DNA from: Promethearchaeota archaeon
GTDB taxonomy: Archaea > Asgardarchaeota > Lokiarchaeia > Sigyniarchaeales > SOKP01
Direction: 5' to 3'
Assembly (NCBI GenBank): GCA_019058365.1
Contig: JAHPZE010000002.1
Location: 32,001 to 96,000, forward strand
Length of the DNA stretch: 64,000 bases
Part shown: one piece after another, positions 4,736-9,305 of the stretch
Position numbering within the stretch: the stretch's first letter is position 1
Layout: each line of letters opens with the position of its first letter
The notes under the pieces: model-generated
The model's database searches: none
What the model saw: only the letters and a program-made list of their open reading frames with translations
Told to the model about the DNA's origin: nothing
Made by a program: the position numbers and the translations under genes

Positions 4736-5026
4736 TTAGAAAAGGGATCCAATCCCCGTAGGCTCTTCTTCGACTGCTTCTTCTTTTTCCTTCTTTTTTT
4801 CCTTCTTTTTTTCAGTTTTTTCTCCGGCAGGAGCTACCATTACCGGCATAGACCCAGCAGATTTTATAATTTCATCAATATCTGCTTGTTTTAGACCAGC
4901 AATTAATTTAACGATTTGATCTTTATCAACTTTCGCACCTGCGGCAGTTAATACTTTTTCTACATTCGCTTCGTTAATTTTTCCTCCAGCTTTATGTAAT
5001 AATAAGGCAGCGTAAATACTTTCCAT
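4736..5026 (-). CDS. rpl12p: 50S ribosomal stalk protein P1 (L12p)
   Basis: MESIYAALLLHKAG..INE N-terminus and acidic tail ending GIGSLF. Confidence 0.96.
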   Translation of the reverse strand: MESIYAALLLHKAGGKINEANVEKVLTAAGAKVDKDQIVKLIAGLKQADIDEIIKSAGSMPVMVAPAGEKTEKKKEKKKEKEEAVEEEPTGIGSLF

Positions 5027-5101
5027 AATATCTAACCTCTTTTTTATTTTTTTATCTTAATATTAGTAATTTTAATTGAAATATCAAAAAATCTTAATTT
5101 T

Positions 5102-5995
5102 TTATCCAAAAAGACCTCCAATACCAACTTCTTCTTCCTCCTCGGTTTCATCTTCAGCTTTTTTTTCTTCAACTTTAGATTCTGGTTCAGCCGATAATTC
5201 GATCTCCTCTCCAAAGATCATTGCTTTTATTGTATTAACCTCAGATACAGCTTTCCGAATATATTCTTCTGTCATTTCCTCTAAATAGAATGGCATTTCA
5301 AAAAGAATTCCTAGTGCCTCTCTATAAACTTTAGTGAAATCTTGTTTGAATTTTATCATATCCATATATAAGATTTCTTCAGGGATTATTTCACCGTCGT
5401 TCCAAGCAAAGTGAATTTTTATCAATGATTCTATTGGTGTAATTCCCAGCTTTTTTAAAACCGCTGCTTGCTTAACATTAACCAAATCACCAGCTTTATG
5501 GGTTCTTGTATCTTCACGAACATGTATCGTATCATTCATAATTCTCGTTGGCAATCGCAATGTCATATTCAATTCACTAATTACTTGTCCTGTGGGTAAA
5601 CCAGTATCACCTGCAGGAACCCATATATCTACAGGAGTAACTTCATTGGGTTTTGCTGGTACCATCCACTCATTTTCAAGAAATATCTTTTTTAATTCAA
5701 ATAGATCAATATTTGTAAATACAAGACTAGATTGCCCAGGAATATGATTTGCAAATTCATCCAAGTTTTTCTTTTTAGCTTCACTTTTAAATTGTTCTAT
5801 TGCTCGTAATTGAAGTGATTTTTTAGACATTCTAAATACTGCTTTTCCTCTCAAAATTTTCCTCATTGTTTGAAATTGCATGTCGCTTATATGAGCAACA
5901 TCAATTACAGCGATGTTCTTATAATTTTTAAATAAATCAACTAAATGATTAATTTCATCTATCTTCCATTGTGGTATATGTTTTTTTTTAATCAT
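5102..5995 (-). CDS. rplP0: 50S ribosomal protein P0 (uL10)
   Basis: IPQWK...V, PAGDTGLPTG, LKKLGITP, C-terminal GIGGLFG; ATG at 5995. Confidence 0.95.
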   Translation of the reverse strand: MIKKKHIPQWKIDEINHLVDLFKNYKNIAVIDVAHISDMQFQTMRKILRGKAVFRMSKKSLQLRAIEQFKSEAKKKNLDEFANHIPGQSSLVFTNIDLFELKKIFLENEWMVPAKPNEVTPVDIWVPAGDTGLPTGQVISELNMTLRLPTRIMNDTIHVREDTRTHKAGDLVNVKQAAVLKKLGITPIESLIKIHFAWNDGEIIPEEILYMDMIKFKQDFTKVYREALGILFEMPFYLEEMTEEYIRKAVSEVNTIKAMIFGEEIELSAEPESKVEEKKAEDETEEEEEVGIGGLFG

Positions 5996-5999
5996 TATT

Positions 6000-6728
6000 T
6001 CACACCTCAATACTTTTTAGGAACTCTTCTGTCACTTTCACGGGTTTTCCCATTGTAGATTTAAGATACATAGATTTAAAGTTGTTAAATTTGTGTGGCA
6101 TTTGATCAGCAATGAAATTCACTACAGCTTTCATATTTTCATATAACTTTTGCCTATCCAGAGATTTTTTACCGATCTTAGCGAAGATAATGGGTTGCTT
6201 TTTCATTTGAATCCTAATTATTTTTTTATATCGTTCATAAGCTACATTTAAATCTTCTACGCTAGAAATAATCCCATATCCAGTAGGAAAAGGTTTTGGC
6301 ATTTTACCAACGGGTCCAAGATATCTAGCTAAATATCGAGCGACATCTCTCATCATTTTATCTTCCACAACAAAAAATTCATATCTTTTAGCAAATTTTT
6401 TCTTGTATTTTTTCTCTTCATTATTCAAATTAATCAAACCGCTTGAATCTAAAGTTTCCACCCCAAGTTTTTTCGCTTCTTGTAAAATCTCATCTGACGC
6501 AATTACACAAATATTAGGTCTGTCATTTGTAATTACTTCATTTGATAAGATAATTTCTTTATCAATTCTGCTTTTTGGATCGTTTAGATTAATATCTTTA
6601 ATATTAATGATGATATCAATAGACTCATCGAATTTTCTGACTTTGCCTTTAAACCCTTCTTTCTTCATTATAGAAAAATCAATAGCAGCGTTTAATGATT
6701 TCTTTAATAATTTATCATCGACTTTCAA
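6000..6728 (-). CDS. rpl1: 50S ribosomal protein L1 (uL1)
   Basis: RKFDESIDIIIN, LGPVGKMPKP, KSTMGKP; L11-L1-P0-P1 operon. Confidence 0.96.
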   Translation of the reverse strand: MKVDDKLLKKSLNAAIDFSIMKKEGFKGKVRKFDESIDIIINIKDINLNDPKSRIDKEIILSNEVITNDRPNICVIASDEILQEAKKLGVETLDSSGLINLNNEEKKYKKKFAKRYEFFVVEDKMMRDVARYLARYLGPVGKMPKPFPTGYGIISSVEDLNVAYERYKKIIRIQMKKQPIIFAKIGKKSLDRQKLYENMKAVVNFIADQMPHKFNNFKSMYLKSTMGKPVKVTEEFLKSIEV

Positions 6729-6734
6729 ATTTTC

Positions 6735-7330
6735 TTAATCACCTCTTAAGATGTCATCAAATTCCCCTTTATCTATTTTTTTTTGGATAGCTCTTGGATC
6801 TTGTCCTTCTACTGTTAACCCCACTGATAATGCTGTTCCTAACACTGTTTTTATGCCTGCTTTAATTGTTTTATCTAAAAATTTATCTCTTTTAGCCTTC
6901 ACTACATTTTGAACTTGATCAAGTGTCAAATTTCCTATTTTTGTTTCTGAACAACTAGCACTCCCTTTTTCAACACCTACCTCTTTCAGCAATAATGATG
7001 CAGTAGAAGGTGTTTCTATAAAAATTTCAAATTGCTTTGTCTCCGGATCACATTCAATTCTAACGGGTACGGTTAGTCCCCTAAATACCATTGTCTGCTT
7101 GTTGATTTCGTCAACCACATCTTTAATATGTGCATCGAAAATCGAAATAATTTTCGTTTATGCCTGTGGGACCAACAGCAGGACCTTTACCATAATTTGA
7201 CAAAAGCGATATGCTTTATGCAATAGGCGGCCCTCCTGATGCATTTGGGGTCTAATCGAAATGATTATTAAAGATATACACTCCCACCAGTCACAAGAGC
7301 CTTTACAACAATTTTTCCTTTTTCACTCAC
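6735..7330 (-). CDS. rpl11: 50S ribosomal protein L11 (uL11), split by three BHB introns; exons 7330-7281, 7243-7223, 7186-7158, 7129-6735 (495 nt, 164 aa)
   Basis: The ORF track shows only the C-terminal 127 aa. The spliced N-terminus reads [46 protein letters not shown], the conserved uL11 GG.A..GPP.GPA.GP.G.N motif. GTG start at 7330 is preceded by GGTGAG. Confidence 0.92.
7130..7157 (-). other. rpl11 mRNA intron 3 (28 nt, near-perfect BHB)
   Basis: Central helix GCAU/AUGC, bulges AA|A and AC|A, intron helix CGAAAAUU-auuuc-GAUUUUCG. Confidence 0.9.
7187..7222 (-). other. rpl11 mRNA intron 2 (36 nt, relaxed BHB)
   Basis: Exon helix AGGGCC/GGUCCU, central helix GCCU/UGGU (one U.U), cuts AU|U and AA|A; inner hairpin AAAGC-auauc-GCUUU; contains an in-frame UAA. 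Confidence 0.83.
7244..7280 (-). other. rpl11 mRNA intron 1 (37 nt, relaxed BHB/BHL)
   Basis: Central helix UGGG/CCCA, cuts AG|U and AA|U; inner hairpin UAAUC-auuuc-GAUUA; contains an in-frame UAA. Confidence 0.85.
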
Positions 7331-7385
7331 ATACTCTCACCGTTTTTTTTAATAATTCTTGGTTTAAAAAATATCCTAAAAGGTA

Positions 7386-7456
7386 AGAACGCGAAATTAC
7401 TAATTATTCCTATTTCAATATTTTTATTATATCGAAACCGCATTAATTTGCGTCCT
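7386..7456 (-). promoter_or_regulatory. Structured 5' leader of the rpl11-rpl1-P0-P1 operon
   Basis: Outer stem AGGACGC-AAATTA/TAATTT-c-GCGTTCT enclosing a 10-bp stem GTTTCGATAT/ATATTGAAAT; TATA-like TTTAAAAA at about 7483-7476 just upstream. Confidence 0.5.
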
Positions 7457-7534
7457 AAGTTTCTTAGAATAATTTTTTTTAAACTTAGTAAGTTTTAGAA
7501 TAAAGCAACCTTAAAAAATTTTTCCAGAATTAAA

Positions 7535-7720
7535 TTAAAATCTACAACATAGCCTACGACCATGATTTAGATCACACTTTAAATATTCTTCAGATAAAAT
7601 ATTCATTATTGTATCACGATCCAAGTTTACTTTCTTGATAATATCTTCAATCTCAATTCCAGGAGTCGATATTAAGTCAAAAATCTTTTTCTTAACTTCT
7701 TCACTAATTTCTGAGCTCAT
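7535..7720 (-). CDS. Small hypothetical protein, possibly HTH-like
   Basis: 61-aa ORF with ATG start and amphipathic helical pattern; ends CCRF. Confidence 0.6.
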   Translation of the reverse strand: MSSEISEEVKKKIFDLISTPGIEIEDIIKKVNLDRDTIMNILSEEYLKCDLNHGRRLCCRF

Positions 7721-7943: not shown

Positions 7944-8627
7944 TTAATCCCCTTCTTCTAAGATTACCTTATGTGCTATTTTACCAATTTTTTCTATCGA
8001 TGCTTCAATTAAGTCTCCTGGTTGAATCGGGCCTACTCCACTAGGAGTTCCAGATGCAACAATATCTCCAGTGAATAATGTGACAAATTTGGAGAGATAT
8101 GAGAGAATTTCAGGAATTTTGAAAATCATATATTTTGTATTTGATTGTTGACGAACTTCTCTATTAATTTGTAATTTAATATTTAAATTATGAGGATCTT
8201 CAATCTCACTAAAAGGTACAATTCTCGGGCCAATTGGTCCAAATGTATCGAAATTTTTGCTTCTATACCATGGTAAATTAATATTTCTATCACTTATCTG
8301 CATTTTCCTCGCGGTTATATCTAGAAAAATAGTGTATCCTTCGATATATTCATGAGCGTGCTCAATTTGAATATTCTTACATTTCTGAGAAATTATAAAT
8401 GCTAATTCTACTTCGTGATCTACTTGATTATATTCTTGACTATCATACAGTATTTTAGGATAGATAATTGGATTCCCATCAGTCACCAATGTATTTACAG
8501 TTTTCCCGAAGAATACTGGATCTTTTGGTACTCGTGCCTTCATCTCCCTTGCATGATCTACATAATTACGTCCCAAACAAATTATTTTTGTAGGACTTAT
8601 CTCATTTTCTCCAATTTTGATAATAAT
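7944..8627 (-). CDS. Fumarylacetoacetate hydrolase family protein (paralog 2); start uncertain
   Basis: KIICLGRNY, DHEVELAFII, RSKNFDTFGPIGP, GDIVASGTPSGVG. Homology to paralog 1 extends upstream of the TTG at 8576 to about 8621-8627. Confidence 0.9.
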   Translation of the reverse strand: MIIKIGENEISPTKIICLGRNYVDHAREMKARVPKDPVFFGKTVNTLVTDGNPIIYPKILYDSQEYNQVDHEVELAFIISQKCKNIQIEHAHEYIEGYTIFLDITARKMQISDRNINLPWYRSKNFDTFGPIGPRIVPFSEIEDPHNLNIKLQINREVRQQSNTKYMIFKIPEILSYLSKFVTLFTGDIVASGTPSGVGPIQPGDLIEASIEKIGKIAHKVILEEGD

Positions 8628-8630
8628 TTT

Positions 8631-9305
8631 TCATTCACCTTCCATAACTACTTTATTTGTAAGCGTTCCTATCTTTTCTATTGTTGCTTCAATAAGATCG
8701 CCTGGTTGTATAGGCCCAATTCCACTTGGAGTTCCTGTAGCTATAATATCTCCAGGCTCAAGGGTAAAAAATGTCGTAATATACTCCATAAGTTTGGGAA
8801 TTTTGAATAATAGATGCTTAGTATTAGAAAATTGTTTAATCTCTCCATTTAACATCAATTCAATATTTAAGTTATGAGGATCTTTGATTTCATCAGTATC
8901 AACTATTCTTGGACCTATCGGCCCAAAAGTATCAAATGATTTAGAACGAAACCATGGTAATTTAGATACTATATCTATTGCTTGCATTTTTCGTGCAGTA
9001 ATATCATTAAATATTGTATATCCAAGAATATAGTTATATGCTTCATCTTTTGGAACAAATTTACATTTATCTTTTATAATAAATGCCAATTCTACCTCAT
9101 AATCCACTCTATTATATTTGTGTTGGTTAAATAAAAATTTAGGATAAATTATCGGCTCTCTATCTGAAATCAGGCAGTTTAAAGTTTTTGGAAAAAGAAC
9201 CGGCTCTTTTGGAATGTTCAAACCTGTTTCTTCAATATGGTCCATGTAATTTGTACCGATGCAAATAATCTTCGTCGGATTTATCGTTTGGAGCCCAATT
9301 TTCAT
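8631..9305 (-). CDS. Fumarylacetoacetate hydrolase family protein (paralog 1)
   Basis: KIICIGTNY, DYEVELAFII, NDITAR, KSFDTFGPIGP, GDIIATGTPSG. Confidence 0.93.
   Translation of the reverse strand: MKIGLQTINPTKIICIGTNYMDHIEETGLNIPKEPVLFPKTLNCLISDREPIIYPKFLFNQHKYNRVDYEVELAFIIKDKCKFVPKDEAYNYILGYTIFNDITARKMQAIDIVSKLPWFRSKSFDTFGPIGPRIVDTDEIKDPHNLNIELMLNGEIKQFSNTKHLLFKIPKLMEYITTFFTLEPGDIIATGTPSGIGPIQPGDLIEATIEKIGTLTNKVVMEGE

Follow-up and report, generated by a model that had tools for sequence, protein, structure and literature searches.

Three short BHB-type introns and two micro-exons in the rpl11 gene of a lokiarchaeal genome

Introduction

How can an archaeal cell obtain a complete ribosomal protein uL11 from a gene whose N-terminal codons are split by three short inserts, and whose unspliced frame ends at a stop after 20 codons? 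Such a gene lies on the minus strand of the window (the whole 64,000-nt stretch of DNA analysed here), and a preliminary description attributed the inserts to mRNA introns cut by the splicing endonuclease EndA and sealed by RtcB. The EndA-spliced archaeal mRNAs named in reviews are cbf5 and Haloferax HVO_1309, with one intron each, and more are expected (PMC10485636). The papers found on Asgard introns are concerned with tRNAs or group II introns (including PMC11291895). A literature search that left most subscription journals outside its coverage turned up neither mRNA introns in Asgard archaea nor an archaeal protein gene with several introns.

Structure of the rpl11 gene

The gene begins with GTG and consists of four exons, the two internal ones being micro-exons (Table 1). 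Excision of the three inserts gives a 495-nt frame encoding a uL11 of 164 amino acids, and the coordinates, insert lengths, exon sizes and translation proposed earlier were all reproduced from the sequence. The spliced product has the features by which archaeal uL11 (PRK01143) was recognised, namely an N-terminal domain with a proline-rich motif, a C-terminal RNA-binding domain, a length of about 164 amino acids and a position beside rpl1, and it equals the intron-less consensus across codons 14-37. All seven incomplete splice forms meet an early stop; all three inserts must almost certainly be removed for uL11 to be made.

Both uL11 Pfam domains match one place only in the 4.74-Mb, 100%-complete genome, which makes this rpl11 the single copy; a second intact rpl11, named at the outset as a finding that would count against splicing, is not present among the domain matches. 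The expectation that standard gene callers would report a truncated L11 is borne out: they report the inner ORF of exon 4 alone (127 or 118 amino acids), databases contain products of 118-128 amino acids, and many of the Lokiarchaeia uL11 entries are fragments of 118-150 amino acids. Against the NF002232 cut-off of 162, an intron-less congener (P0009) scores 190 and passes, while the unspliced ORF of the window scores 147.7 and fails.

Table 1. Positions of the rpl11 exons, introns and pairing elements, of neighbouring features in the window, and of BHB-type introns elsewhere in the genome (G000) and in a congener (G023)
Feature	Position	Strand	Remarks
rpl11 exon 1	7281..7330	-	50 nt; codons 1-16 and two bases of Ser17; GTG start at 7330
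Helix strand UGGG for intron 1	7286-7283	-	supplied by exon 1
Intron 1	7244..7280	-	37 nt; frameshifting, in-frame stops
Terminal loop AUUUC of intron 1	7262-7258	-
Helix strand CCCA of intron 1	7249-7246	-
rpl11 micro-exon 2	7223..7243	-	21 nt
Helix strand GCCU for intron 2	7228-7225	-	in micro-exon 2, whose 3' part also makes the exon helix
Intron 2	7187..7222	-	36 nt; in-frame stop
Terminal loop AUAUC of intron 2	7212-7208	-
rpl11 micro-exon 3	7158..7186	-	29 nt
Helix strand GCAU for intron 3	7163-7160	-	supplied by micro-exon 3
Intron 3	7130..7157	-	28 nt; frameshifting
Terminal loop AUUUC of intron 3	7148-7144	-
rpl11 exon 4	6735..7129	-	395 nt with stop
Ribosome-binding site GGTGA	7337..7341	-	precedes the GTG start; similar sites in relatives
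rpl1-rpl10-rpl12	4736..6728	-	intact, downstream of rpl11; ORFs, uL1 match
Upstream element, two inverted repeats	7385..7489	-	conserved in an alignment of 80 Lokiarchaeia upstream regions
BHB-type introns in G000 (26-32 nt), first five	C13:17126, C26:18160, C36:26637, C52:2085, C52:30988
BHB-type introns in G000 (26-32 nt), remaining five	C6:17691, C7:91535, C9:585, C9:32935, C46:48704
BHB-type introns in G023	C1:1382056, 292034, 335882		absent from G000

Intron-bearing and intron-less alleles among Lokiarchaeia

Loci of rpl11 were taken from genomes and metagenomes and compared by protein-to-DNA alignment with free intron positions, RNA structure being left unused. The names of the relatives (Promethearchaeota/Lokiarchaeia, including Loki_b32) place the host in Lokiarchaeia/Promethearchaeia, in agreement with the Asgard origin first surmised. 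Among 86 distinct Lokiarchaeia sequences, some of which are partial contigs of close kin so that the counts are not independent, 32 are insert-free; 8 have intron 1 only, 17 an insert at the intron 2 site only and 18 intron 3 only, while introns 1 and 2 are combined in four, introns 1 and 3 in one, and all three in two. The remaining four bear inserts at two further sites, codon 28 (L064, L066, L069) and codon 32 (L138), of 28-31 nt and with the same geometry; L064 and L066 combine the codon 28 intron with intron 1. Relatives thus use five intron sites within the first 34 codons of rpl11. The comparisons below draw on 17, 23 and 21 distinct sequences carrying intron 1, an intron at the intron 2 site and intron 3, respectively.

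The search for intron-less alleles, proposed as a check in the preliminary description, yielded both insert-free genes and each insert alone at its usual site. Since the inserts are precisely absent from congeneric alleles and recur at the same codon, they are not chance insertions. All three occur, a few substitutions apart, in two independent assemblies (L003/L032 and L104), which rules out an assembly artefact. Carriers at the intron 2 site fall into two sequence families, of 35-36 nt and 30-31 nt; the shorter introns (L121, L116, L122, L062, L140) look unrelated to the longer ones and form a canonical BHB, and the occurrence of two families at one junction suggests two independent insertions there.

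We traced six full-length sequences that nearly match intron-bearing loci, and none was identifiable as RNA-derived: one is a METAG sequence extending far upstream, one a short METAG contig, three run into upstream genes, and the sixth came with no DNA record. The search brought to light no spliced transcript, circular intron or junction peptide. The homologue list contains no full-length protein more than 86% identical to the C-terminal part of the window's protein. A sequence of partly spliced appearance (P0003) proved to be a DNA allele with introns 1 and 2.

Geometry of the splice sites

A 4-bp helix had been proposed at each junction. This holds for introns 1 and 3 (4/4 pairs), whereas the central helix of intron 2 (GCCU/UGGU) has three pairs and a U.U mismatch. 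Among carriers, the helix is complete in 17/17 for intron 1 and in 20/21 for intron 3, and has three or four of its four pairs in 23/23 for intron 2. In intron 3 the central helix stacks on an 8-bp stem. At intron 2, seven unpaired bases face the 5' cut and a 6-bp exon-exon helix is present, so that its predicted structure is a bulge-helix-loop-like site held by that helix. The exon helix of intron 1 consists of two pairs after a mismatch, and that of intron 3 is mostly absent. The strict hBHBh' motif, with two 3-nt bulges and flanking helices, is formed by none of the three, and their folds are relaxed forms of the BHB motif as far as pairing can be read from the sequence.

With the cut placed 2 nt beyond the central helix, all carriers of introns 1, 2 and 3 (17/17, 23/23 and 21/21) yield the conserved protein. 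When each intron was slid from -8 to +8 nt and the spliced proteins were compared, shift 0 was the sole register to do so in all carriers of introns 1 and 3, and shifts 0 and +1 were equivalent for intron 2; a shift of -1 yields the conserved protein in just 1, 4 and 3 carriers. All junctions are intracodon and split Ser17, Ile24 and Asn34. The three motifs draw on non-overlapping exon bases, and hence no fixed order of splicing is required.

In folding models of the whole region, the helix of intron 2 is the sole dominant one, with a probability of 0.93. The helix of intron 1 has a context-dependent probability of 0.05-0.75, and that of intron 3 rises from 0 in the global fold to 0.77 in local folding and 0.94 with most of exon 1 removed; forcing all three helices together costs about 5.5 kcal/mol in whole-region folding. 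Neither the enzyme nor the ribosome enters these models, and for this reason no order of splicing is drawn from them.

Several other classes of intron are set aside by size and content. The inserts are 28-37 nt long with variable ends, and a search of 7050-7600 against Rfam gave no match, which rejects group I, group II and spliceosomal introns and self-splicing. Archaeal introns encoding a homing endonuclease are rejected as well: within the limit of 80 nt, the aligned rpl11 loci contain no insert above 37 nt, and no endonuclease gene was found in or beside the rpl11 introns.

Signs of selection in exons and helices

Compared with the window over codons 10-37, 52 intron-bearing sequences show 659 synonymous and 23 non-synonymous codon differences, and intron-less sequences 468 and 15. 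The exons of rpl11 are by this measure under purifying selection, and a pseudogene is rejected. An insertion read through by the ribosome is likewise rejected: of 64 inserts examined, none can be read through, each one shifting the frame or containing a stop.

The wobble bases of exon codons that form the central helices are fixed in carriers, in 17/17 against 7/65 non-carriers for intron 1, 23/23 against 9/59 for intron 2 and 21/21 against 7/61 for intron 3, with kin among these sequences not independent. The central helix of intron 1 shows a compensatory change from U-A to A-U in L064 and L066, in which the exon side is the wobble base of a Gly codon. Across the 21 carriers of intron 3, 95.8% of the cells of the stem are paired and five pairs display two-sided changes, 11 in all; none of 500 shuffles reaches the observed level, and control structures slid along the alignment are paired in 24-48% of cells against 96%. 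These patterns indicate that exon-intron pairing in the EndA geometry is under selection.

Splicing machinery and proposed mechanism

The genome encodes two EndA paralogues above the TIGR00324 cut-off. One (198 amino acids, on G000:C26 in the region of 34764) aligns best to crenarchaeal alpha subunits and retains the catalytic His and the K-P-R loop, a loop linked to the cleavage of relaxed motifs (PMC12397907). The other (206 amino acids, on C12 in the region of 101662) is without the catalytic His and is probably a structural subunit. We infer a two-subunit EndA with a crenarchaeal-type loop, the assembly of the subunits being itself presumed from their sequences; this enzyme type has been linked to the splicing of cbf5 (PMC2738675, PMC10485636). 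RtcB is intact (567.6 bits).

Taken together, rpl11 is very probably a functional gene with three relaxed BHB-type mRNA introns. It would be transcribed into a pre-mRNA as the first gene of an L11-L1-L10-L12 message, and each insert would form a local hairpin paired with the exon bases just ahead of it. By the geometry of the sites and the precedent of cbf5, the two-subunit EndA would cut each strand 2 nt beyond the central helix, and RtcB would ligate the exons. The proposal that first drew attention to the locus, a functional multi-intron gene processed by EndA and RtcB, is thus the best reading of the single gene copy, the selection on its exons, the cut register, the covarying stem and the presence of the enzymes.

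The inserts might instead be removed by a different route, either from the DNA of some members of the population or by another RNA enzyme that reads the terminal loop. Precise intron-less alleles in near-identical DNA contigs are in line with this idea, as is the conservation of an R-N-N-U-C/A loop that lies away from the cut sites and outside the BHB definition. It is nevertheless very improbable: the boundaries of all three families, and those of 13 further introns in two genomes (10 and 3, described below), fall at EndA positions, the rpl11 inserts have no terminal repeats and no adjacent recombinase, and whole assemblies carry the inserts as consensus. Translational bypassing, in which the ribosome hops over the inserts and no RNA is cut, is known from T4 gene 60 and the byps of yeast mitochondria, and the inserts resemble such elements in being short hairpins with in-frame stops and of similar size. 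We hold it to be just as improbable, since the first two bases of the take-off triplet agree with those of the landing triplet in just 1/17, 0/23 and 3/21 carriers (4/61), the split Ser17, Ile24 and Asn34 are preserved only by cutting and joining, and pairing in the EndA geometry is under selection. Least credible of all is a dead 5' part, with a truncated L11 of 127 amino acids from GTG at 7118 or no L11 at all: products of 118-128 amino acids do stand in databases, the C-terminal RNA-binding domain is whole and some bacteria can live without uL11, but the exons upstream of the last intron retain 889/908 residues of the window's peptide in carriers, their codon differences are overwhelmingly synonymous, the GTG at codon 38 or 39 is missing from 6/21 carriers of intron 3, no ribosome-binding site precedes 7118, and insert pairing is maintained across hosts 69-98% alike in protein.

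Further introns in the genome and a shared terminal loop

Introns removed by EndA from rpl11 would not be alone in this genome. We aligned 1725 orthologous proteins of a congener (G023, with an intron-free rpl11 and a 2.27-Mb chromosome, 81% complete) to those of G000. This census returned 13 frame-breaking inserts of 26-37 nt in 11 genes, three in rpl11 and one in each of ten others; rpl11 is the sole multi-intron gene found by it. The number 13 is a floor, as introns common to both genomes escape the census. A BHB-type fold was found in 12 of the 13 inserts, against 2 of 64 ordinary in-frame indels given the same treatment, and 12 of the 13 sit in 9-residue windows identical in the two genomes (background 21.5%). 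From their motifs we take the ten other genes to encode Alba, EF-1alpha, the large RNA polymerase subunit, AMP phosphorylase, a JAMM protease, an acyl-CoA dehydrogenase, a cobalamin-binding subunit, a kinase, an aldolase and one more protein. The reverse search revealed three BHB-type introns in the congener that G000 lacks, apparently in the genes of EF-2, adenylosuccinate synthetase and a third protein.

Each of the three rpl11 introns has a 5-nt terminal loop, R-N-N-U-C, closed by a Y-G pair. The loop is retained across carriers while the stems vary, and is mostly present at the codon 28 and codon 32 sites as well; the shorter family of introns at the site of intron 2 (30-31 nt) is without the R-N-N-U-C/A form. 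Among the 13 introns outside rpl11, 6 have an R-N-N-U-C/A loop on a stem of at least 3 bp, where shuffles predict about 1.15; the loop occurs in 1.3% of background hairpins. It may be a mark of common descent or a binding site.

ARAGORN called just 29 tRNA genes in G000, many of them mis-called, with introns at odd positions (location given as the orthologues, on C9, of G023:C1 about 720000-760000). These odd calls imply that tRNA introns are probably numerous and under-annotated.

Gain, loss and possible lateral exchange

On a quick tree of 77 rows, built from exon 4 and rpl1 only, introns 1, 2 and 3 require at least 11, 14 and 16 changes of presence, counts that do not separate gain from loss. 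Sequences 96% alike in exon 4 carry introns 1 and 2 in one case (L103) and intron 3 in the other (L107), and what sets L294, L295 and L297 apart from L038 is precisely the 28-nt intron, along with a few other bases. Introns that come and go in this way between close relatives are optional passengers and not conserved regulators.

Exon 2 of the window is identical in distant carriers of introns 1 and 2 (L040 and L110, 78-80% in exon 4), and its exon 3, first base aside, matches carriers of intron 3 (L107, L005, L021). Pairs of sequences sharing an intron are more alike in the nearby exon than non-sharing pairs at equal exon-4 distance. These similarities point to lateral exchange of short tracts, by which the three-intron allele would be a mosaic of an allele with introns 1 and 2 and an allele with intron 3. 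Part of the pattern is explained by selection for RNA structure and by an intron-rich ancestor whose introns were lost precisely and repeatedly. As for possible vehicles, the pattern of intron 1 gave 0 matches in viral contigs, and reverse transcriptase (PF00078) was not found in G000. The three LAGLIDADG_3 matches in the genome are all on contigs other than that of rpl11. Downstream of the acyl-CoA dehydrogenase intron, at a distance of about 400 nt, is a LAGLIDADG ORF of 482 amino acids (L299:1620-3068, G000 C46), a possible free-standing homing partner.

Relation to known introns

The closest known system is the intron that Desulfurococcales and Sulfolobales have in cbf5 (Watanabe 2002; Yoshinari 2006; Yokobori 2009, PMC2738675). 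Both are short introns inside a codon of a conserved motif, with a relaxed BHB, a two-subunit EndA, a cut between the second and third bulge base, and gain and loss among relatives. Unlike cbf5, with one intron in one gene, rpl11 has three introns and two micro-exons in an Asgard host, at least 11 genes are affected in this genome, and relatives use five sites at the start of rpl11. The splicing of cbf5 was shown by cDNA, whereas that of rpl11 is predicted from DNA. HVO_1309 of Haloferax volcanii (PMC7714728; PMC10485636) likewise has an EndA-cut BHB intron in an mRNA, but that intron is single, lies in the 5' UTR outside the coding sequence and is cut by a homodimeric enzyme. The non-canonical tRNA introns of Asgard archaea and Thermoproteales share the size class, the motif and the occurrence of several per gene; they have been gained repeatedly (PMC11291895; bioRxiv 10.64898/2026.10.13.758758), and the main text of the latter work does not mention mRNA or cbf5. 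Those introns lie in tRNA genes, which in G000 too are interrupted.

The splicing of XBP1 and HAC1 by IRE1 and RtcB is a protein-catalysed, non-spliceosomal excision of a short frameshifting mRNA intron, and resembles the proposed processing of rpl11 in this respect. It differs in its nuclease and motif and in being a regulated switch, whereas the rpl11 introns are optional between sister strains. The layout of the gene had been called eukaryote-like; this applies to the arrangement of exons and introns and to nothing further, because nothing ties these introns to spliceosomal ones.

Relative to the known EndA introns, what is new here is their multi-intron, micro-exon, genome-wide and mobile character. 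We would put at even chances the broader reading that Lokiarchaeia splice mRNAs routinely with the tRNA machinery, and that introns of about 30 nt with an R-N-N-U-C/A loop move laterally and are stacked by recombination; by this reading they bring short tracts of exon with them and settle in the best-conserved codons of housekeeping genes. If true, the nearest prokaryotic kin of eukaryotes have an exon-intron architecture with micro-exons of 21-29 nt that is built without a spliceosome, and in their cells ribosomes can load onto an mRNA that is still unspliced. A ribosomal-protein mRNA that needs three splices would by itself show that a cell with no nucleus can tolerate obligatory multi-intron splicing of a gene whose expression is normally high. 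This has a bearing on the proposal that splicing had to be separated from translation under the burden of introns. Near-identical strains differ in intron presence, and the gain and loss of archaeal introns, a question posed by tRNA introns also, thereby become testable at the population level. Truncation of intron-bearing genes by gene callers extends to the phylogenetic markers EF-1alpha and the large RNA polymerase subunit.

Neighbouring features of the locus

The rpl1-rpl10-rpl12 genes are probably on one transcript with rpl11, and the genome census against the congener found no introns in them. On a metagenome contig (L298:1502-2217), rpl1 is split by an apparent deletion or assembly error and not by an intron. 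The conserved upstream element may permit alternative pairing and has no Rfam match; a translational leader of the L1 type is one possible role, and a promoter that includes a factor-binding site is another. An ATG-TGA start-stop at 7327-7332 (minus strand) overlaps the GTG start of rpl11, with the same layout in many relatives, and could divert initiation. Further upstream, 7944-9305 of the minus strand holds two tandem paralogous ORFs with the look of the fumarylacetoacetate-hydrolase family.
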